A stretch of 62,669 bases of DNA, the filler included, from Bonamia ostreae (taxonomy: Eukaryota): the NCBI GenBank assembly GCA_040357525.1. It is 41 parts of 41 records of this genome, joined end to end, with 100 filler letters (N's around TTAATTAATTAA, not from the genome) between each part and the next. Parts side by side here need not be neighbours in the genome. Positions count along the whole stretch, not along the records: positions 9,233 to 10,670 come from JBDODL010001813.1; 40 more parts are not named here. The stretch is one strand, 5' to 3'. The translations under genes were made by a program, and so were the position numbers. Under the pieces are notes generated by a model. It had not been told where the DNA came from, searched no databases, and saw only the letters and a program-made list of their open reading frames with translations. Positions 1-62,669 of this stretch are shown here, piece by piece. How positions within the stretch are numbered: the stretch's first letter is position 1; each line of letters opens with the position of its first letter.

Positions 1-136
1 GATACAAAATATCTTTTATATTTCTTTCCTATATCACCAAAATGGTTCAAAGCACCGGTAATATATCTTTAATTTTATTTTTATCAATCATAAAATTTAT
101 CAGAACATTTTTCAAGTACTCCAAATGATAATTCAA

Positions 137-1140
137 TTACAATTTTTGCGTTTTTTCAAATTGTCCGGGGCCTCTTTTTTCGTCGATCAATTCCATTATC
201 TTTTTTTCTTCTTCGCTTTTTTTGATTTTATTTTCGTCGATGTCATTTGAATCAGTTTGAATATTTTTGTCGTTCCATTGTTCAATTTTCGAAGCCATTT
301 TTCTGATTTCGTCATTCTTTTTGTTGATCATTTCTTCATATTTTAATTGCAGTTCTTTTAAGCTTTGCTCCTTTTTTTTCAAATTTTCAATTGTTTCTTC
401 TTTTTCTTTGTTTATTTCTAATTTTGAAATTTGCGAAACCTTTAAATTGGTCCAAACTTAAAAAAATGTTGTTTTTGAATTTTTGGGAATAATCGAATTC
501 CATTCTGGACGCGTTTTTTCTATCCGCGATTTGTTCTTTCCGCAATTTTATAATTTCGTTTTTCAATTCGCTATTTTCTTTTTTTAGAATTTCCATCTTT
601 CGCAATTTTGAAATTTTAAAACATTTTTATCAAAATTTTCTTTTGGACGATCACTTTTGACTTTTTCACAATTGCTTTTTTCTTTGTTTTCAGACAAAAA
701 ATTTTGATTGTCCAAATTTCTTATTTTATCTCTGAAAAGAATATTTTCAATCATCAATTTTTCCAATTTTTCTTCATAATCATTTTTGAGCTTCAGAATG
801 TCCGATATCGACTTGTTTTCGGACTTTTCAACCGCTTTTATCGAAATCTCTTTTGGAAATGACGACCCGTCAATATCACAATCCTCAGTTATTTCCAGCT
901 TAAAATTAGAAAAAATTGCACTTGTTTTTTGTAAATCGATTCTAAAGTCCAAAAATAGCCAAATTTTTGATTTTGGCCAAATCTGATTAACATCCAAAGA
1001 GCGCCTTCGTAGAAAATTCGGGCGACGCATTTCAAAGAAGGATCATTTAAATTCGCAGAAGGATGCCAAAAATTTCTGATGCACCATTCCAGACGCGATT
1101 TGTTGCTGCTAAGATTTTCTGCCAAATTAAGAAGGTCGTT
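137..1140 (-). CDS. Hypothetical coiled-coil protein (protist, multi-exon, 5' partial)
   Basis: K/E-rich ORF segments join in frame after removing GT-AG introns at 597-622 and 418-439, and probably one at about 943-992. Confidence 0.6.
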
Positions 1141-2978: not shown

Positions 2979-3078
2979 NNNNNNNNNNNNNNNNNNNNNN
3001 NNNNNNNNNNNNNNNNNNNNNNTTAATTAATTAANNNNNNNNNNNNNNNNNNNNNNNNNNNNNNNNNNNNNNNNNNNN

Positions 3079-9132: not shown

Positions 9133-9232
9133 NNNNNNNNNNNNNNNNNNNNNNNNNNNNNNNNNNNNNNNNNNNNTTAATTAATTAANNNNNNNNNNNN
9201 NNNNNNNNNNNNNNNNNNNNNNNNNNNNNNNN

Positions 9233-9306
9233 ACACCTTTAGGTATCATTCTACCACTAACCTCTTTATCCATCTTACCCTTTACAAAGTCATTAACTAA
9301 TTTCAT
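9233..9306 (-). CDS. N-terminus of a crAss-like/Bacteroidetes phage tail stabilisation ('muzzle') protein, partial
   Basis: MKLVNDFVKGKMDKEVSGRMIPKG resembles the F.KGKMNKD...R..P.G N-terminus of this family; starts 2 nt after the upstream stop. Confidence 0.7.
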
Positions 9307-9308
9307 CC

Positions 9309-10670
9309 TTAAAGCATTTTGTTGTATCCAACATCAGAACCAAGCTTTTGAATTATCTCCCCTGGCTTAGTGAACATTCTTCTTTGTGACTTTCTTACTT
9401 CATTATAAAATTCCCTTCTAGCAGATTCTTTTTCTACTCTAGGAACGTTTCTTAATTTATCTATATATCTATGATATATTCCAGCTTCAAGTGCAGTCTG
9501 GAAGTATTTATGTATCCTTAATTTCCTTGGGTCTTTCTCTGCTGCAATAGGGTCAGAAAGATATTCTATTACTACATGAGTAAATTCTGATGGTATTCCA
9601 TCAAGTAAAAATTCTCTAGCTTGAGAATCATATCTATATGCTCCTGTATAAGATTGTTGACCACCTTTTATGCCATATAATGCATTATCATATATGAAAT
9701 CCCCATCTACTGTTGGACTTGCTAACCAATATTTTTTTGAACCATTAGACACTTCACTGCTTCTAGTTCCTTGTGCTTTTATTGGATAACCTAAGTTATC
9801 AACTATTATTTCTCCATCTTGATCTTTGATATATTTCTGAGAGATATTAAGTTTTTTATTTACAAATAGTGGTAATAAAATTCCTGAAGGTGATACTAAA
9901 GATAATCTTACAAAGTCAACAAAATCCACTGGAGGTATTACTTTATTTGCTGTGCTTATCTCAGCTTCATATACTCTTAATTCACGTTCACAATCGTAAC
10001 TTAAATCTTGAATAAGTCTCTTAGCTAATAACAAAGCATGGAATCTATTTATTCCTTGCAAGTAAGAATCTCCATTAATAGATTCTATCATTATATTATC
10101 AATAATATCTTTTAAAAAGACAGACTGTGAATCACTGTCTGATGATTCTTGAGTAACTATAAGAGATTTAGTAACTAATAAATCTTCCTTCAGAGTTAAT
10201 ATAAAAGTATCAGATAAATCTACATATCTATCATTTCTATTTACTGATACTGTTATCTCCGTTGTAAAATTTGCATTAGCAGCTAGTAAAATAGAACCCC
10301 ACAATAAAGGTGCTATATCTTCCTTAGCAACCACATATACTATCTTATTTACACTATCTATTTTAAATACATATCCATACTCTAAATCATCTCCTACCGT
10401 GCTAGGTGGGAGTGGAGTAGTGTATGTCTCTTTCCTTATAGGTATTATTCCTAGTAAATCACTTTTACTATGAGAAGTGCATAATTTTGCTGTTGAACAT
10501 CCTATAGCTGTTGTCTCTGAATCTTCTGTCGAAGTCCAATATGAGGTATATTGTAAAGGACTTTTAGGTAATGATGATAAAGAATCTATTAAATCCTCAA
10601 ACTCATCTTGAGCAGGAAGATACCAGCCTATCTCTTCAGTATATAATGGTGGTACATAGTTAATAGCTGC
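9309..10670 (-). CDS. Phage tail tubular/ring protein with N-terminal DUF1566-like and BACON-like extensions (5' partial)
   Basis: Intronless frame open to the contig edge. The C-terminal ~270 aa (VFLKDIIDNIMIE...AKRLIQDLSYD...PVDFVDFVRLS...VVIEYLSD...IHKYFQTALEAGI) resemble crAss-like ring proteins; upstream GWYLPAQDEF...YWTSTE...IPIR is DUF1566-like. Confidence 0.8.
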   Translation of the reverse strand, partial: AAINYVPPLYTEEIGWYLPAQDEFEDLIDSLSSLPKSPLQYTSYWTSTEDSETTAIGCSTAKLCTSHSKSDLLGIIPIRKETYTTPLPPSTVGDDLEYGYVFKIDSVNKIVYVVAKEDIAPLLWGSILLAANANFTTEITVSVNRNDRYVDLSDTFILTLKEDLLVTKSLIVTQESSDSDSQSVFLKDIIDNIMIESINGDSYLQGINRFHALLLAKRLIQDLSYDCERELRVYEAEISTANKVIPPVDFVDFVRLSLVSPSGILLPLFVNKKLNISQKYIKDQDGEIIVDNLGYPIKAQGTRSSEVSNGSKKYWLASPTVDGDFIYDNALYGIKGGQQSYTGAYRYDSQAREFLLDGIPSEFTHVVIEYLSDPIAAEKDPRKLRIHKYFQTALEAGIYHRYIDKLRNVPRVEKESARREFYNEVRKSQRRMFTKPGEIIQKLGSDVGYNKML

Positions 10671-10967
10671 NNNNNNNNNNNNNNNNNNNNNNNNNNNNNN
10701 NNNNNNNNNNNNNNTTAATTAATTAANNNNNNNNNNNNNNNNNNNNNNNNNNNNNNNNNNNNNNNNNNNNACTTTAAACAGGAATGTTGAAACCCATGTA
10801 ACAAGGAACATTTATCGTCAGGCATGTTTTCTTTATCACAAATAGTACTGCAGTTTAGGTTTTCTACCTTTCATATATTCTTACATTCTTTGTGCAGTTT
10901 CAGTTTGTAAAGAAATTATATTGTTTATGAATAGAATAATCAATATTCAACATTAAACATGTTTTAG

Positions 10968-21522: not shown

Positions 21523-22731
21523 ATGTTCGTCAATATCAATATAAATTTTACAAAACAAAAACTCCTATAAAACAAAAATCCGAAGAGCCATAATCAGGAA
21601 AGAACACCAAACAAAAAACCAAAAATATCGAACTACTACAAACACGCGAAAAAACGATCTTTGCCCGGCGACATCTACGAAACGCCCCCGAAATACGGAA
21701 AAGAAGGAGAAGACGTCGTTTACGACCGATACATCGCCAGCCGGGCCACATCGGCCGTTTGCTCGCCATTCTCCAAACCACTCGCCTTTTCCAAGAACTT
21801 CTCCACCAGCGACTCGCTCTCCGTCTCCTCCGAAAACCCCCTCGACCTCGGCGCTCCCACCCCCAAATCAAACAAACCGCCAAAACCGAACCTCAAAAAC
21901 GTCAAATCCGAAACCGAAAATTCGGACCAAATCCAATCGCGGAAAATCTTTTGTTCCGACCGCGAAAAACAAAGAAAGCTCCGGAAAACGAGAATCCGAC
22001 TGGAAATGCCCGCGGAGCGCCAACTGAGTTTCCACACTCCGAAGAAGAAGCCGCGTTTGCCGCGAGTGGCCGCAAATTTCGAGACGGTCCCGCTGGCCAA
22101 CCCGCGGCTGCGGCGGGCGCTCTTTCCGAGCGCGGGGCGACGCATCGCGCAGCGGCCGCTGCGCACGCTCGACGCGCCGGGGCTGCGCGACAACTTTTAC
22201 CAGTCGCTGTTGGACTGGTCGGCGCGCGGCTGTGTCGCGGTGGCGCTGGGGCGGACGGTGTACTTGTACAACGAGCACTCGCACGAAGTCGCGGCGCTGT
22301 TCTCGCAGGGCGCGGGGGCGCCGGAAGTGACGGCGCTGGCGTGGGACGGGCGCGGGGCGCGTCTGGCGGTGGGGCTGGCGAGCGGGCGCGTGGAGTTATG
22401 GGACGCGGCGGCGAGCAAGTTGGAGCGCGCACTGGAGGGGCACCGGGCGCGGGTGGGGCGGGCGGCGTGGCGGGCGGGGCAGCTGGCGACGGGGAGCAAG
22501 GACAGAGCGGTGGCGGTGCGCGACCCTCGCGCGAAGGGCGGGGGGACGTGGCTGCAGCAGCACAAGCAGGAGGTGTGCGGGCTCCGCTGGGCGCCGTTTT
22601 CGGAGAGGGCGCTGGCGTCGGGGGGCAACGACAACGAGCTGCTGGTGTGGGACGTGGGCGAGAAAGCGGTTTCGCACACGTTTTCGGAGCACAGAGCGGC
22701 GGTGAAGGCGATCGACTGGTCTCCGCACAAA
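21523..22731 (+). CDS. FZR1: APC/C activator Cdh1/Fizzy-related (Cdc20 family), 3' partial
   Basis: C-box-like DRYIASR, RRIAQRPLRTLDAPGLRDNFY..LLDWS, HKQEVCGLRW, LASGGNDN, EHRAAVKAIDWSPH; probable first intron 21529-21585. Confidence 0.9.
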
Positions 22732-22759
22732 GTTTTTTGTCGCGTTAGTTTTTTCATTT

Positions 22760-22952
22760 TTAAAATATAAAATTTTGAAGTAAAAAGGATTTTTAAAATG
22801 ATAAAATTTTGTTGCAAACAGATTTTTAAAATGATAAAATTTTGTTGTAAAAAGATTTTTAAAATATAAAATTTTGTTGTAAAAGGATTTTTGTTGTAAT
22901 GATAAAATTTTGTTGCAAAAAGATTTTTAAAATGATAAAATTTTGTTGTAAA
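22760..22952. repeat. Intronic AT-rich tandem repeat, ~32 bp unit
   Basis: gatttttaaaatgataaaattttgttg repeated after the GT donor at 22732. Confidence 0.85.
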
Positions 22953-39793: not shown

Positions 39794-41422
39794 NNNNNNN
39801 NNNNNNNNNNNNNNNNNNNNNNNNNNNNNNNNNNNNNTTAATTAATTAANNNNNNNNNNNNNNNNNNNNNNNNNNNNNNNNNNNNNNNNNNNNAAAAATC
39901 AAGCCAGGAGAGAACATCCTTAATTCTATGTATATGCATCATCAGATTCTTGATTTTTTATAAACGGCATATAACTTTGACAAGTTTAACTGTCAATATT
40001 AGGGGGATATTTTACTCTGATATCTCCCTTGATCAAAGAAAATCTGATTGGCACTGGCGGAAAATGTCGCAGTCTGTATAAAGGAATGACAAGACGTTTT
40101 TATTACAGAGATACAAATAGAGAGCACTATCTTCGGTCCCGGGTATACAGCTGTTCGCATTTGATGCGCTTTCTAGGCGAGCATACATGTAACATGTGGA
40201 TGTAATTTAGATAAATTCCATATACGTACCTTTATGCAATGTATCTTTTAAACAAGTCTTCGACAGGTTACGTATTTTAATTACTTTTTCTTATATCAAA
40301 TAATTTTACGGTACTACATGTTATAAATTACGACCCCCACCATCGATTAGTGTTTAGAACAGTTTCTGTCACTCGCGATTACAACAGCTACATGCACCGG
40401 TAATAGAATCTCCTGAATTAAATCAGTTAATCTAAAGTTTCACGTTGACTAAGTTCTGACGTTAAATATTTTAGCAATCATCTTTTTTAAAAACATAATA
40501 ATCGAGATATGATAAGCATATACATGTACATACATGTAATGTACAATGTACGATTGTGGCTTTTTTAGTTTGGAAGCCGTATAGAAGTAACTTCACAGAA
40601 AAATTTGCAAACCTCGTTGTTTCCGAGTTCCTCTTCCTTGGGATGAAAACGGGGTAGAGGGAAGAGCTCTTCACAAATCCCGGGACATTTCGCAATTACT
40701 AGTGAATATTCCAACATTGGTGTTTTCTCAATATGCTTTAAACACGTGTCGCAAATCTTATGTCCACAACGAATGACTGCAATTCTTGCCTAGAACCCAG
40801 GAAAAAGGTATTCGACTTAATACGTGTTGTGGAAATCAGTATGTTACTAGTATATCACAAAATGGCATACAGTAAATATCTTACCTTTGATGAACACGTT
40901 GAGCAAATCCACTCATCAATCGAATAATATCCCTCACATGTTTCTAACTGCATGATGAAAGGACTGGCCTGCAAAGGAATCGTGAAATAAACGACAATAA
41001 GCATAATTCATACTGTGAAATTTGATTATAACTGCTTTAAATATTAATTTTCCTAATGGAAGGAAGCGAGAAAGTATTAAAAACAAAAGACGCCATGTAT
41101 TTGATTTTATAGGCGAGTAACATGTAGTACGAACTACACTGAGTTTTATCAATGTTAAAGAAATGGCTATTTTATTGGACATGGCTTCCGAAATAGTGGA
41201 CCTCCGAACTAATTTAATCAGAAATAATATATTTGACTGAACGCAAATTTATACTATCTTTACTGGTAACAGCGATGCTTAAACATGATCGTTCATTATC
41301 CATATAAAACAAGTTCGAGCAGNNNNNNNNNNNNNNNNNNNNNNNNNNNNNNNNNNNNNNNNNNNNTTAATTAATTAANNNNNNNNNNNNNNNNNNNNNN
41401 NNNNNNNNNNNNNNNNNNNNNN

Positions 41423-42709
41423 CAAATCTCCTGCCCAATATCTAACTCTTTTCCCGTCTTCGAATTCGAACGCTTTTATTAAATCGCTTATAAGACGCGG
41501 GTCATCTCGAAGTCGGTGCCAAGTGGGAATTGGCAAAGTCGCCATCCCGCTTTCTCTGGCTGTTCTCCTCGCATCCTTCACCATGTTCTTGGCTCTCTCC
41601 TCGTTCCGTTCTACTCCCTTGTAACGTCCTTCATCGTCCACGAGGATCTCTGCTGCTCTCAAGTAGGCATCCGGCATCCCGAAGACACCCGCTGTGACTA
41701 AGTAGAAAATTGCCTTCTTCGCATTTCGCTCGAGTTCAAGTGGTCCGCTGTCGGCGAGCAGAAAACCCAGATCTCTCTGCGCCCCTTTGTGCCCTCTGTT
41801 CGCCGCTTTGAACATCCACTTCAAAGCATTCTCCGTCTTTCCGTCGATTCGTTTTTTCGTTTTGCTATTCTTTCCGTTTTGTCTCCGGTCTTCTTTTACT
41901 GTTCCATCTTTTTTTGATGTTCCATCTTTTTCTATGTTTCGATCTTCTTTTTCTATGTTTCGATCTTCTTTTACTGTTCCAACTTTTTCAACGTTTGCCA
42001 ATTTGCCATCTAAACTTAAAGCCTTAGCCATCTCTAACTGGATGGACAAACGACCAAAACTAGACATCCCCTCCACGTCGCCCCCTTCCGCCGCTCGCAA
42101 AAACCAATTTAAAGCTTCATTCGGATTTCTTCTCTTCGCTTCTAGACTTCCAGCCAAACGCTGCGAACGAGGCAAATTGCCCTTTTCGACATCGCCCGCT
42201 TTCTCCGCCAAACGCATCGCGACATGCAGATCCTTCTTCTCGTAGATGAACCCCAAATCGCACATCGCCCTAAAATTGCCTTTCTCCGCCGCCTTTTTGA
42301 GCCATCTTAGAGCTTCTGCTGAGCTCTGGTCTACTCCGATTCCTTCGTGAAGCATGTGGCCGACGGTCGCCATCGAGTCGACATGTCCCTTCGAAGCGCT
42401 GCGGACGAAGTGGCGGAATGCTTCTCGGACGTTTTTCTTGACGACCTTTCCCGCGAGAAGCAGTTTGGCCATGTGCGCCTCTGCTTCGGGGTGTCCTTGC
42501 GACGCCGCTTTGGCCATGTACAGACGAGATTTCTGGGTGTCCTTTTCGAAGCCATTCGAGCCGTCCAAGAAGTTGACGGCGAGTTCGTATTGTTCATTCG
42601 CGTTCCCTCTTTCGGCGAGATCAACGAGAAAGTCGCTTTTGGAGGAGAAAAGGGCCTTTAGCGGAGAAAGTCGTTTGCTGTGGAGTAGTGCTGATTTTTT
42701 GAGCAGCAT
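41423..42709 (-). CDS. Sel1-like repeat protein with putative mitochondrial presequence (3' partial)
   Basis: Repeated A..G...A...LG Sel1 motifs (e.g. EALRWLKKAAEKGNFRAMCDLG); N-terminus MLLKKSALLHSKRLSPLKALFSS is basic and lacks acidic residues. Confidence 0.9.
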
Positions 42710-61147: not shown

Positions 61148-62669
61148 NNNNNNNNNNNNNNNNNNNNNNNNNNNNNNNNNNNNNNNNNNNNTTAATTAAT
61201 TAANNNNNNNNNNNNNNNNNNNNNNNNNNNNNNNNNNNNNNNNNNNNTTTGTTAAAAAGATATAATTATAAACTGTTTATTATCTTGTTCATAGGTACAT
61301 GTACTTGATTATGCTTAAGTTAACACATATAGAGAACAGGGTAGTTAGGGTATATTTTTAGTATATTTTTTATTCTATCTCATTCAGGTGCCAATAATTC
61401 GGTTATATTTACCGTGACCATTTGGTATCAATTATAGCCATGAATTGCATAACAAATGCACATAAAAATACAAGAAAAAAGTGATACATGCATCATAATA
61501 TCATGAGCGCTAATTATGACAATTAGTTCAAGCTAATTCATACCAGATCATAGACAGTTAGATTGATCTGTGCATACTGGAAACTGATGTACGCATATAA
61601 AAGTAAAAGCTTTCGGTTAGTATACATTATTCCGAATTACTGTACGCAAATTCAAAAAAGCAATCTATGTATGGGGAGAGTTGTAAATACAGTGGATAGT
61701 AATCAGAAATTTGATAGTGAGCTTAATGCAGTAGAGGTTCAACGTCTAAGGTGAGCATGATCTGTCCTTAACGGGATTAGCGTTTTATTTGAACACAGTC
61801 TTAGTTCCGGTAACTTAGTGGATATTCGCAGTTTCTCAATACACACGTTTCCTCTCTTTTACAAAAAATTGATTAGTACACTGTATAGGGTTTTAAACAA
61901 CCATGAAATCTTGATAAAAAGTCATATTGCTTTCTACCACGTTACTTCCTATTTCCTTTGTCTTATAGTCATTAAACAGACAAAATCTACATGCAGATTT
62001 GTTAGAATTCTTATAGATTTTCGGGTAAAAAAGTCAGTGGTCACCTCATTTCCATGCATTGTATATGTGGATTCCAATAAGGGAAATATGTAATTTACAA
62101 ACAGTTCCTGTATTTCAATGTGCAAAGTTCCACAAAATTTTATTTTAAAAATAGATGTGAAATGCACATGCTCTGTATCTATCTACAAAATTACTTGTAA
62201 GAAAATTTCATTTCAAAGAAAACTTGTTCATTGGTTCACTTTCTACAACCAAGAGTAAAAGATACCATTTAAATGTACAAACATTAGTACAGTGTATCAA
62301 GATACGGGTTACATCCTTGTAACAAAGCATATTTAGATGCCCATACGTAACACAAATTTGATGACATCAGGGTAGGTCAAGATCCTGACCCAATACCATC
62401 ATGCATTACGCTGTTTGCAGGTGACCTGTGCATAAGTCATGATGCTATATCAAGGTCACTTTGACAAAGTCAAGTTCAATTATGCAAAAAAAAAACAAGG
62501 TTTTTATCAGGGTCCTGCATTTATGATAGATAATGTGGAATGTAAGGTAATTTAAATCGTCTTACCTGAAAAACGATATTCAGCAACATTTTATCTCGAA
62601 ATAACGAAAAAATGACAAAATGAAAGTCGAAACACGACAAATTACAGGCGAAAAGAAGACAAACAAAGC

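Follow-up and report, generated by a model that had tools for sequence, protein, structure and literature searches.

We have analysed a gene on a short contig (JBDODL010001813.1) of the Bonamia ostreae assembly GCA_040357525.1, which forms part of a window of 62,669 nucleotides, the whole stretch of DNA considered here. On balance we think it probable that this gene encodes the neck-ring protein of a podovirus, in which an Ig domain carries a nested and permuted lectin-like module that originated out of register and is predicted to provide a glycan-binding display at the neck. The contig would derive from a phage of marine-type Bacteroidota and the protein would act as its head-to-tail adaptor; at full length, a BACON-like Ig sandwich with an inserted DUF1566/Lcl-type module would be followed by the ring domain. 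The features of the contig, numbered along the window, are as follows.

9233..10670, no strand assigned: independent contig of 1,438 bp, flanked on both sides by 100-nt artificial linkers (9133-9232 and 10671-10770).
9233..9306, minus strand: start of the next gene (24 codons, MKLVNDFVKGKMDKEVSGRMIPKG), truncated by the contig end; shared pattern MK..DF.K.KM.K......IPKG.
9309..10670, minus strand: ring/adaptor gene with nested N-terminal module, 5'-truncated as judged from homologue lengths; 453 codons plus a stop at 9309-9311.
9312..10124, minus strand: ring or head-to-tail adaptor domain, helices plus a beta-sandwich.
10125..10145, minus strand: Ser/Asp-rich linker SSDSDSQ joining display module to ring, with no regular secondary structure in either model.
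10146..10277, minus strand: C-terminal half of the Ig domain, three strands, NANFTTEITVSVN...KSLIVTQE, identified by VIA-align against 3zmr_B, the BACON profile in P0009 and hhalign.
10278..10385, minus strand: relocated beta-hairpin LEYGYVFKID...VYVVAKEDIAPLLWG, the homologue of the hairpin found N-terminally in canonical DUF1566 repeats.
10386..10424, minus strand: linker YTTPLPPSTVGDD, family consensus Y.T...PP...G.DL, with no regular secondary structure in the models.
10425..10670, minus strand: DUF1566/Lcl-type core as far as it is visible, fragment residues 1-82 (76-157 of the homologue P0001), with the motifs WYLP, YWTSTE and IPIRK.

A map of N-runs shows that 40 linkers of 100 nt (44 N + TTAATTAATTAA + 44 N) split the window into ~41 contigs of roughly 1.4-1.5 kb each. 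The contigs adjoining positions 9233-10670 are unrelated pieces and not genomic neighbours; where unrelated contigs are joined in this manner, open frames at contig ends and seeming neighbours are artefacts of the joining. The minus-strand frame ends with a TAA at 9311-9309 and, as the original prediction had it, reads on beyond the ORF-track start at 10334, through 453 codons. It is open as far as 10670 because the contig stops there, and the ring gene is therefore truncated at its 5' end, with ~75 N-terminal codons missing and the 3' 86% present. At 10334-10332 the GTG does not mark the gene start but encodes an internal Val, residue 113 in the visible fragment. With residues 77-528 of P0001 as query, tblastn matched the window at 10667-9312 with 79% identity. 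The missing N-terminus was absent from all other contigs of the window in tblastn searches with P0001, P0002 and P0016, nor did any of the 144 ORFs of a related 72-kb phage match another window contig. The sequence observations made originally are confirmed: the quoted peptides are all present in the order given, namely GWYLPAQDEFEDL ... YWTSTEDSETTA ... SKSDLLGIIPIRK, then VGDDLEYGYVFKID ... VYVVAKED ... WG, next EITVSVNRNDRYVDLSDTFILT ... KSLIVTQ, and last the ring domain, from ~10124 downwards. Their interpretation is partly supported.

Homologues match the fragment with E values of 1.8e-242 to 2.6e-108 at 97-100% coverage, and the frame is therefore not due to chance. Eleven full-length homologues of 502-549 aa (40-79% identity), encoded on contigs of 6-86 kb (the largest 86,305 bp), have the same whole architecture, and an independent assembly, L088, holds an intact 535-aa ORF. 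A contig of 1,438 bp lying among unrelated short contigs, with a ring gene cut at its 5' end, might lead one to suspect that the architecture is an artefact, be it the product of chimeric assembly, what is left of a pseudogene, or a tandem DUF1566 repeat cut short. Such an origin is scarcely credible: the segments occur in the same order in all 11 of these independent proteins, the 453-codon frame is intact, both structural models are confident throughout the module, and each protein has only one core and one hairpin. A chimeric assembly is ruled out by the architecture common to the 11 homologues.

The ring domain shows the two-part fold of alpha-helices together with a beta-sandwich found in crAss001 ring proteins. 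It was compared with the ring proteins of crAss001 (a 226-residue chain in PDB 7qog/7qoi and the tail-barrel chains of 7qoj) and with single-ring podovirus adaptors, those of KHP30 (7wmp_m), GP4 (8jov_2), VP1 (8zkk_B), Pa223 (9nwi_A), SU10 and N4. The sequence identity of these chains to the ring domain is only 5-14%, and the matched chains, at 195-243 residues, leave no room for the 255-residue N-terminal module. Several paralogous ring proteins are given as a defining feature of crassviruses in PMC10172136. Another relative is gp23 of Elemovirus (YP_010108990.1, Flavobacterium phage vB_FspP_elemoF_6-3D, annotated as 'virion structural protein', PHROG 13977), which has a homologous ring domain (28.7% identity to P0001 residues 257-508, E 1e-12) in the same gene neighbourhood. 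Among phages of cultured hosts, tblastn found relatives, with an Elemovirus-like gene order, in Flavobacterium, Cellulophaga, Tenacibaculum and Maribacter phages; the one record examined is classified as Elemovirus. Unlike the fused protein, gp23 and the Cellulophaga, Tenacibaculum and Maribacter homologues consist of the ring only (286 aa). Both in the Elemovirus record and in the 72-kb relative G001/L088, the ring gene follows portal and capsid-type genes and precedes a large gene of nozzle/muzzle type; in the 72-kb phage the gene directly after it encodes a 1,428-aa virion structural protein. The partial gene at the end of our contig corresponds to the start of this 1,428-aa protein, which belongs to PHROG 14478; a sequence search of the PDB with it found nothing. 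The gene upstream of the ring gene encodes a protein of 248 aa (PHROG 14543). The modules found N- or C-terminal to the ring are accessory: 113 of 146 relatives are ring-only, an N-terminal extension of 70-130 aa, an uninterrupted Ig domain of ~90 aa, is found in 19 of the 146, and three of the seven long relatives scanned have C-terminal LRR domains.

AlphaFold2 models were made with P0001, which is 79% identical, in place of the truncated window protein. The P0001 model has a pLDDT of 91.9 and a module-only model 93.2, with lower values in the latter for the residues equivalent to the Ser/Asp-rich linker. Three features emerge from these models together with fold and profile searches: a split Ig sandwich, a DUF1566/Lcl-type module inserted in it, and a circular permutation of that module. 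The proposed check by AlphaFold and Foldseek succeeded in part, giving confident fold models, whereas Foldseek returned no match to the module-only model at E <= 0.001; the nested topology, which disrupts alignment in sequence order, is the probable reason. VIA-align, used in its place, matched the Lcl and Ig folds.

The Ig sandwich is present in two halves, P0001 residues 1-49 (five strands, beyond the contig end) and 207-250, with the lectin-like module of ~157 residues between them. Thus the segment originally described as BACON-like is the second half of a split domain rather than a complete one, and a linear fusion of DUF1566, Ig and ring gives way to a permuted lectin-like module nested inside the Ig domain. 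VIA-align superposed 87 residues, over a model span of 3..254, on residues 42-131 of 3zmr_B, the BACON domain of the Bacteroides ovatus GH5 xyloglucanase; other Ig-like folds scored within ~1 Z unit. The phage sandwich differs both from this domain and from the crAssphage BACON-repeat proteins (PMC6949934) by its 157-residue insert, and its Pfam BACON score is below the threshold. PF13004 (BACON) matched one of 14 members, P0009, at the equivalent place (profile positions 24-60 of 61) with 18.6 bits against a cut-off of 25 (E 0.0018), and did not match the window protein. In hhalign comparisons the first half of the uninterrupted Ig domains aligned to residues 1-42 of the fused protein with E 1.5e-9, while the second half of the split Ig domain gave only a weak sequence match to them (E 0.007, probability 5%). 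The DUF1566 module is inserted in a loop of the sandwich, between the fifth and sixth strands. The hybrid domain of integrin beta subunits is likewise Ig-like and carries an inserted beta-I domain. Three integrin beta chains (6bxb_A, 9lt3_B and 4um8_D) matched the split sandwich over 88-91 residues with chain spans of ~290-355 residues, providing a topological analogue in which an Ig domain is split by a large nested domain; the inserted fold is a different one, the proteins are unrelated and no homology is implied.

Within the module, hhalign matched the core to columns 43-145 of canonical DUF1566 repeats (E 7.9e-25); for the hairpin the match lay in columns 3-32, with a probability of 94.7% and E 5.9e-8. 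The start of the core, P0001 residues 50-75, is missing from the contig. An HMM of 101 repeats in canonical order gave two matches in swapped order per protein in 12 of 12 members, its positions 1-27 matching fragment residues 101-127, although for several members the per-sequence hairpin match was weak, with iE values as high as 0.32. From these comparisons the module appears to be circularly permuted: the hairpin, normally the first element of the domain, comes last, and the linker at 10386..10424 connects the equivalents of the canonical C-terminus and N-terminus. The placing of the GD..YG.VF..D...WG hairpin 3' of the core rather than before it, noted originally, thus holds in 12 of 12 members. 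The two explanations first offered for it, a circular permutation or a truncated tandem repeat, fare differently; the swapped order speaks for the former and the single core and hairpin per protein speak against the latter. In a 205-aa phage DUF1566 protein of canonical order (L089), VGQDLGYGIVYK comes first and alignment yields swapped HSPs. Tandem DUF1566 proteins (P0018, with 17 repeats in 3,693 aa, P0146 and P0157) and L089 share profile homology with the module over core and hairpin, but have the hairpin before the core in free-standing or tandem units, the reverse of the phage module. The latter comprises a single period that begins with the DG..N motif and ends with the WG motif, and equals one repeat read out of register. 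A tandem DUF1566 array may have donated one such period, out of register, and an ancestral protein composed of Ig and ring may have received it within its Ig domain.

The core has the fold of the solved C-terminal domain of Legionella Lcl (VIA-align, PDB 8q4e), with helices and five strands superposing at an rmsd of 1.7 A over 83 residues (19% identity) and with the common motifs W.LP, YW(S/T)S.E and VR..R, but the canonical order of hairpin then core is not kept. In Lcl, strands S1-S4 stand before the DUF1566 core, whereas the equivalent hairpin of the phage protein stands after it; unlike Lcl, moreover, the phage module interrupts the Ig domain of a protein of the virion. Matches to PF07603 (Lcl_C) with E <= 1 were obtained for 10 of 14 members, and precomputed tables list PF07603.18 for five. 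The gathering cut-off of 34.9 bits was reached neither by the window protein (14.1 bits, E 0.058) nor by the best member, P0005 (34.4 bits). The HMMER check proposed for DUF1566 and BACON thus found no scanned member, the window protein included, at its Pfam threshold.

The original prediction knew of no such architecture on a ring protein, and its rarity was borne out. The fused architecture forms three clusters among 1.84 billion representatives and was found in no cultured phage; of 87 matching cultured-phage records, 0 cover >=80% of the fused protein. A metagenome scan with alignment A3 recovered two loci. The suggested search of viral databases returned 85 BFVD matches at E <= 0.001; the best 50 include no target with the whole fusion and are ring-only proteins, adaptors or neck proteins (best TMq 0.41). 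Used as a single query sequence, the module (P0001 residues 1-255) retrieved P0001 and P0002 only. When the module profile A4 was compared with proteins of 99-490 aa, 15 matches were obtained, each covering <=44% of the module and corresponding to the DUF1566 core only; proteins of this size thus yielded no nested cassette beyond the ring clade. Scores in the ESM Atlas were all <=0.86 and serve as leads only, one Bacteroidota cluster with Lcl_C and BACON being among them. When the window protein alone was compared with PDB sequences, the only match was at chance level (E 0.35). The accessible portions of the literature on DUF1566 in phages, on BACON and adaptor proteins and on circular permutation of C-type lectins do not describe the architecture. 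The nested combination is real and rare, yet it is made of known parts.

DUF1566 and C-type-lectin folds recur as targets of diversity-generating retroelements (DGRs) in phages and Bacteroidota, according to published work, and the lectin-like module might thus be the hypermutable variable region of a receptor-binding protein targeted by a DGR. This idea, also raised originally, found no support in the complete relative G001 (72,154 bp), where the reverse-transcriptase profile RVT_1 gave no match (it matches in four of 14 control genomes) and no template-like repeat was seen, any second copy of module DNA being no longer than 28 nt; this negative result concerns one relative, the phage of the window itself being represented by 1.4 kb only. 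The module is furthermore internal and N-terminal, away from the C-terminus of the protein. A DGR target is in our view very improbable.

We return to the neck-ring reading favoured at the outset. Judged by its solved adaptor homologues, the ring domain would assemble into a ring with the portal on one side and the large nozzle-like protein on the other. The Ig domain may serve as a stalk, with about 12 lectin-like heads projecting outward around the neck. These heads could bind a polysaccharide from the surface of the host or of its surroundings in a weak, multivalent and reversible manner, and such binding would aid adsorption alongside the tail fibres. Lcl's C-terminal domain has none of the classical Ca2+/carbohydrate motifs and binds by way of a trimer surface with positive charge (Lcl paper). 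The same paper suggests that DUF1566 may promote trimer formation besides carbohydrate recognition, which would fit an N-terminal module acting by protein contacts or oligomerisation, not through glycans, as a structural platform on which, for example, tail fibres or a collar could dock. Such a platform has a precedent in crAss001, where the ring proteins R1 and R2 carry the tail-hub collar and provide the interface to the fibre-docking hubs (PMC10172136), and the module sequence is fairly conserved in the clade (19 invariant columns over 255 residues). However, the N-terminal extension is absent in 113 of 146 relatives while related phages keep the same neighbouring genes, and docking therefore does not need the module. 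Other relatives have the Ig domain alone, or an LRR domain at the opposite terminus, a pattern typical of swappable binding add-ons, and BACON-like Ig, C-type-lectin-like and LRR domains are all ligand-binding folds. We consider a docking role unlikely and prefer glycan binding at the neck. More tentatively, and with rather more doubt than conviction, the neck ring might be a second receptor-binding platform apart from the tail fibres, on which swappable modules (Ig, Ig with nested permuted lectin, or C-terminal LRR) form an adhesin collar of ~12 copies that contributes to host or substrate specificity.

The module is a clear natural case combining circular permutation with insertion into another domain, and may serve as a scaffold example for protein engineering. 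Having largely escaped both Pfam and Foldseek, it is also useful for testing domain annotation. If the platform reading and the proposed origin are both true, a working lectin has been made naturally by out-of-register capture from a tandem array and domain insertion. Adaptor and ring proteins are usually regarded as inert connectors. Add-ons of Ig, lectin-like or LRR type in a clade of ring proteins suggest a part for the neck in adsorption, and such a role would have a bearing on host-range prediction for uncultured Bacteroidota phages.

The minus-strand reading frame of the ring protein runs from 10670 to a stop at 9311-9309 (453 codons), and the peptides quoted in the original prediction are all present in it, in the order stated. 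The frame is open up to 10670, as had been proposed, for the reason that the contig runs no further; the gene is thus truncated at its 5' end. At 10334, GTG encodes a valine inside the frame, and the family alignment places about 75 N-terminal residues outside this copy. The contig itself covers 9233-10670 (1,438 bp) and holds the beginning of the next gene, directly past the stop:

9306-9233, minus strand: next gene, 24 codons, similar to the start of a 1,428-aa virion protein

In a related phage this 1,428-aa protein adjoins the homologous ring gene on its downstream side. The peptide CSTAKLCTSH (10467-10496, minus strand), located in the lectin core's variable loop, has two cysteines six residues apart (C-x6-C, AIGC....LC). 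The window protein has this pair in common with P0001-P0003, the three relatives closest to it; the pair is absent from the other members and may form a subclade-specific disulfide.

The window is not a single genome piece, and neighbours in it carry no biological meaning. Within its 62,669 bases we mapped 40 identical 100-nt linkers (44 N, TTAATTAATTAA, 44 N) at 1440-1539, 2979-3078 and onward to 61148-61247; the contigs between them number about 41, measure roughly 1.4-1.5 kb each and are in descending order of length. Only 6 ORFs of at least 200 aa occur across the whole window, and GC content per contig ranges from 0.23 to 0.56. Two long ORFs, one for a CDC20/Fizzy-type WD40 propeller and the other for a Sel1-repeat protein, are located as follows:

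21661-22770, plus strand: one of these two ORFs
41375-42709, minus strand: the other of the two

The WD40 protein (E 1.6e-58, slightly below the Pfam cut-off) and the Sel1-repeat protein (E 2e-28) are encoded on separate contigs. These two contigs are richer in GC (0.56 and 0.46), and most of the remaining contigs are AT-rich and devoid of long ORFs, which suggests that the record consists of short leftovers of a mixed or eukaryote-associated assembly. Among the other contigs of the window, none matches the related phage or contains the missing 5' end of the ring gene, and none is an informative neighbour of the phage contig.

A word-indexed protein search returned 15 relatives of the window protein. 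Nine are full-length (527-549 aa, on contigs of 6-86 kb); they align to 97-100% of the fragment at 42-79% identity, with E values from 1.8e-242 to 2.6e-108. In an exhaustive profile search of 1.84 billion cluster representatives, only three among the 150 matches listed cover the whole profile; any extra full-length member would score far above the lowest of these matches. The three are:

P0016, 535 aa
P0011, 544 aa
P0017, 502 aa

The pooled searches give 11 distinct full-length fused proteins and the window fragment. Since the window copy aligns with full-length relatives, the fusion is conserved and is therefore not an assembly chimera, an outcome that the original prediction had considered. 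The fused architecture is rare, also in the viral databases that were to be searched for it. The N-terminal part is covered in 1 of the best 80 of 223 IMG/VR relatives; 87 of 50,697 cultured-phage records match, none covering at least 80% of the fused protein; and none of the structures listed as BFVD matches corresponds to the protein in full (best TMq 0.41). The JGI metagenomes yielded a single full-length locus; this locus, L088, has an intact 535-aa ORF and belongs to the 72-kb phage that was also matched in IMG/VR.

Canonical tandem DUF1566 repeats were found in giant proteins by exhaustive profile search. Their order is a hairpin (G.G.V.Y ... W), a 'G..NT' segment, AA..C, WYLPS, YWSSTE and VR.VR; in P0018 and P0157 this unit recurs about every 153-172 residues. 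A canonical HMM of 145 positions, made from 101 repeats, was run against 12 fused-family sequences and matched each of them twice, in swapped order. The core (HMM positions about 20-143) matches residues about 35-157 with iE values of 6e-14 to 1.3e-23, and the hairpin (positions 1 to about 27-51) matches residues about 175-231 with iE values of 1.2e-5 to 0.32; the hairpin matches are weak singly, and their location is constant across all 12 members. Profile-profile comparison confirmed the predicted permutation, aligning the core slice with canonical columns 43-145 (probability 99.6%, E 7.9e-25) and the hairpin slice with columns 3-32 (probability 94.7%, E 5.9e-8). The canonical order also occurs on a 4.1-kb metagenome contig:

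L089 538-1155, plus strand: stand-alone DUF1566-like phage protein in canonical order, 205 aa

Its 'VGQDLGYGIVYK' hairpin, nearly identical to that of the fused clade, is in the canonical first position, and comparison with P0016 gives swapped HSPs (E 0.002 and 0.018); its flanking genes have no Pfam match. This protein may come from the pool of genes that supplied the inserted module. The limits of the module are exactly the 'DG..N' and 'WG' motifs, that is, one repeat period out of register, which would make capture from a tandem DUF1566 array its simplest origin.

Extensions of the ring domain in A2, an alignment of 146 ring-domain relatives (N-extension: residues N-terminal to the ring domain)
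N-extension of 35 residues or fewer: 113/146
N-extension of 36-69 residues: 1/146
N-extension of 70-130 residues: 19/146
N-extension of 131-200 residues: 2/146 (truncated window fragment and P0148)
N-extension of more than 200 residues: 11/146 (full-length fused clade)
C-terminal extension of 245-373 aa: 5/146

The extensions of 70-130 residues are an uninterrupted Ig-type domain, and two proteins of this group, P0010 and P0006, have 53-56% overall identity to P0001. The first half of this domain aligns with fused residues 1-42 (E 1.5e-9); the second half aligns with residues 212-247 in the expected register, at a non-significant level (E 0.007, probability 5%). The Pfam profile for DUF1566 matches from about position 25-44 on only and scores under its cut-off. 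Positions 24-60 of Pfam BACON match residues 213-253 of P0009 (E 0.0018), a stretch equivalent to just the second half of the split Ig domain. An AlphaFold2 model of P0001, which is 79% identical to the window fragment, was built from 146 aligned rows and has a mean pLDDT of 91.9 and a pTM of 0.75; residues 1-255 modelled alone (pLDDT 93.2, pTM 0.83) retain the same secondary structure. We describe the predicted split sandwich as 'BACON-like', without assigning it to BACON, because other Ig-like domains fall within about one Z unit of the BACON match. Integrin beta chains likewise align to it across long chain spans, and the aligned segments are presumably the hybrid domain, an Ig domain known to have another domain inserted in it. 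Together, the alignments of the Ig halves and the structural match support a history in which a putative Ig-plus-ring ancestor acquired the lectin module as an insert in its Ig domain.

A module-only profile found 15 matches elsewhere (proteins of 99-490 aa), all to DUF1566 cores only, with coverage of at most 44%. A lead from ESM Atlas (score 0.85) is a cluster of 'BACON domain-containing proteins' of 575 aa from Bacteroidota, with Lcl_C in 66% and BACON in 40% of members. LRR domains are found at the C-terminus in 3 of 7 scanned relatives with long extensions, and the ring protein seems to serve as a base for a variety of accessory domains. The repeats match LRR_4 in P0057 (E 5.5e-19), P0078 (1e-6) and P0099 (1.3e-11); the long extensions of P0033 (815 aa), P0066 (931 aa), P0053 and P0037 have no Pfam match.

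In G001, the IMG/VR contig of the related phage (72,154 bp), the ring gene spans the contig ends, with residues 3-50 at 150-7 and 51-549 at 72148-70691. The contig begins and ends with the same 12 nt (1-12 of locus L084 and the end of L087) and the gene is in frame over the junction; this makes it a circular or circularly permuted record, though it is classed 'linear, 68% complete'. The ring ORF is unbroken in L088. Genes run from the portal (PHROG 6547) through 376-aa, 454-aa (PHROG 13704), 263-aa and 248-aa (PHROG 14543) products to the ring gene, and then to products of 1,428 (PHROG 14478), 137, 214, 575 and >974 aa. The 248-aa 'virion structural protein' directly upstream of the ring gene (L084 155-901, minus strand) could be another ring or neck protein. 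The gene order is the same in Flavobacterium phage vB_FspP_elemoF_6-3D (Elemovirus) around its ring-only gp23, annotated 'virion structural protein', and cultured relatives infect Flavobacterium, Cellulophaga, Tenacibaculum and Maribacter. In G001, the one related genome searched, there is neither an RVT_1 match nor a template-like repeat of the module, and the suggested DGR is therefore unsupported.

Each component has precedents: adaptor rings, Ig/BACON domains decorating proteins of Bacteroidota phages, and lectin-like DUF1566 domains. The novelty lies in how they are combined, in a ring protein whose N-terminus bears a split Ig domain that encloses a circularly permuted DUF1566. In titles and the opening parts of abstracts we found no description of a permuted DUF1566 nested in the Ig domain of a ring protein. 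In Lcl, DUF1566 comprises residues 314-399, with strands S1-S4 N-terminal to it, and the domain binds sulphated glycosaminoglycans via a positive surface.

By homology, the ring domain would form the adaptor ring between the portal and a nozzle-like protein, and the 255-residue module on each subunit, too large for the channel, would project outward. The main rival reading is that the module docks fibres, by analogy with the R1/R2 collar interface of crAss001. The module is absent from most relatives, others carry Ig or LRR add-ons, and all of these are ligand-binding folds, which argues for an accessory adhesin instead. Such an adhesin would consist of an Ig stalk and a lectin-like head in about 12 copies, and these heads would provide multivalent, reversible binding to polysaccharide.
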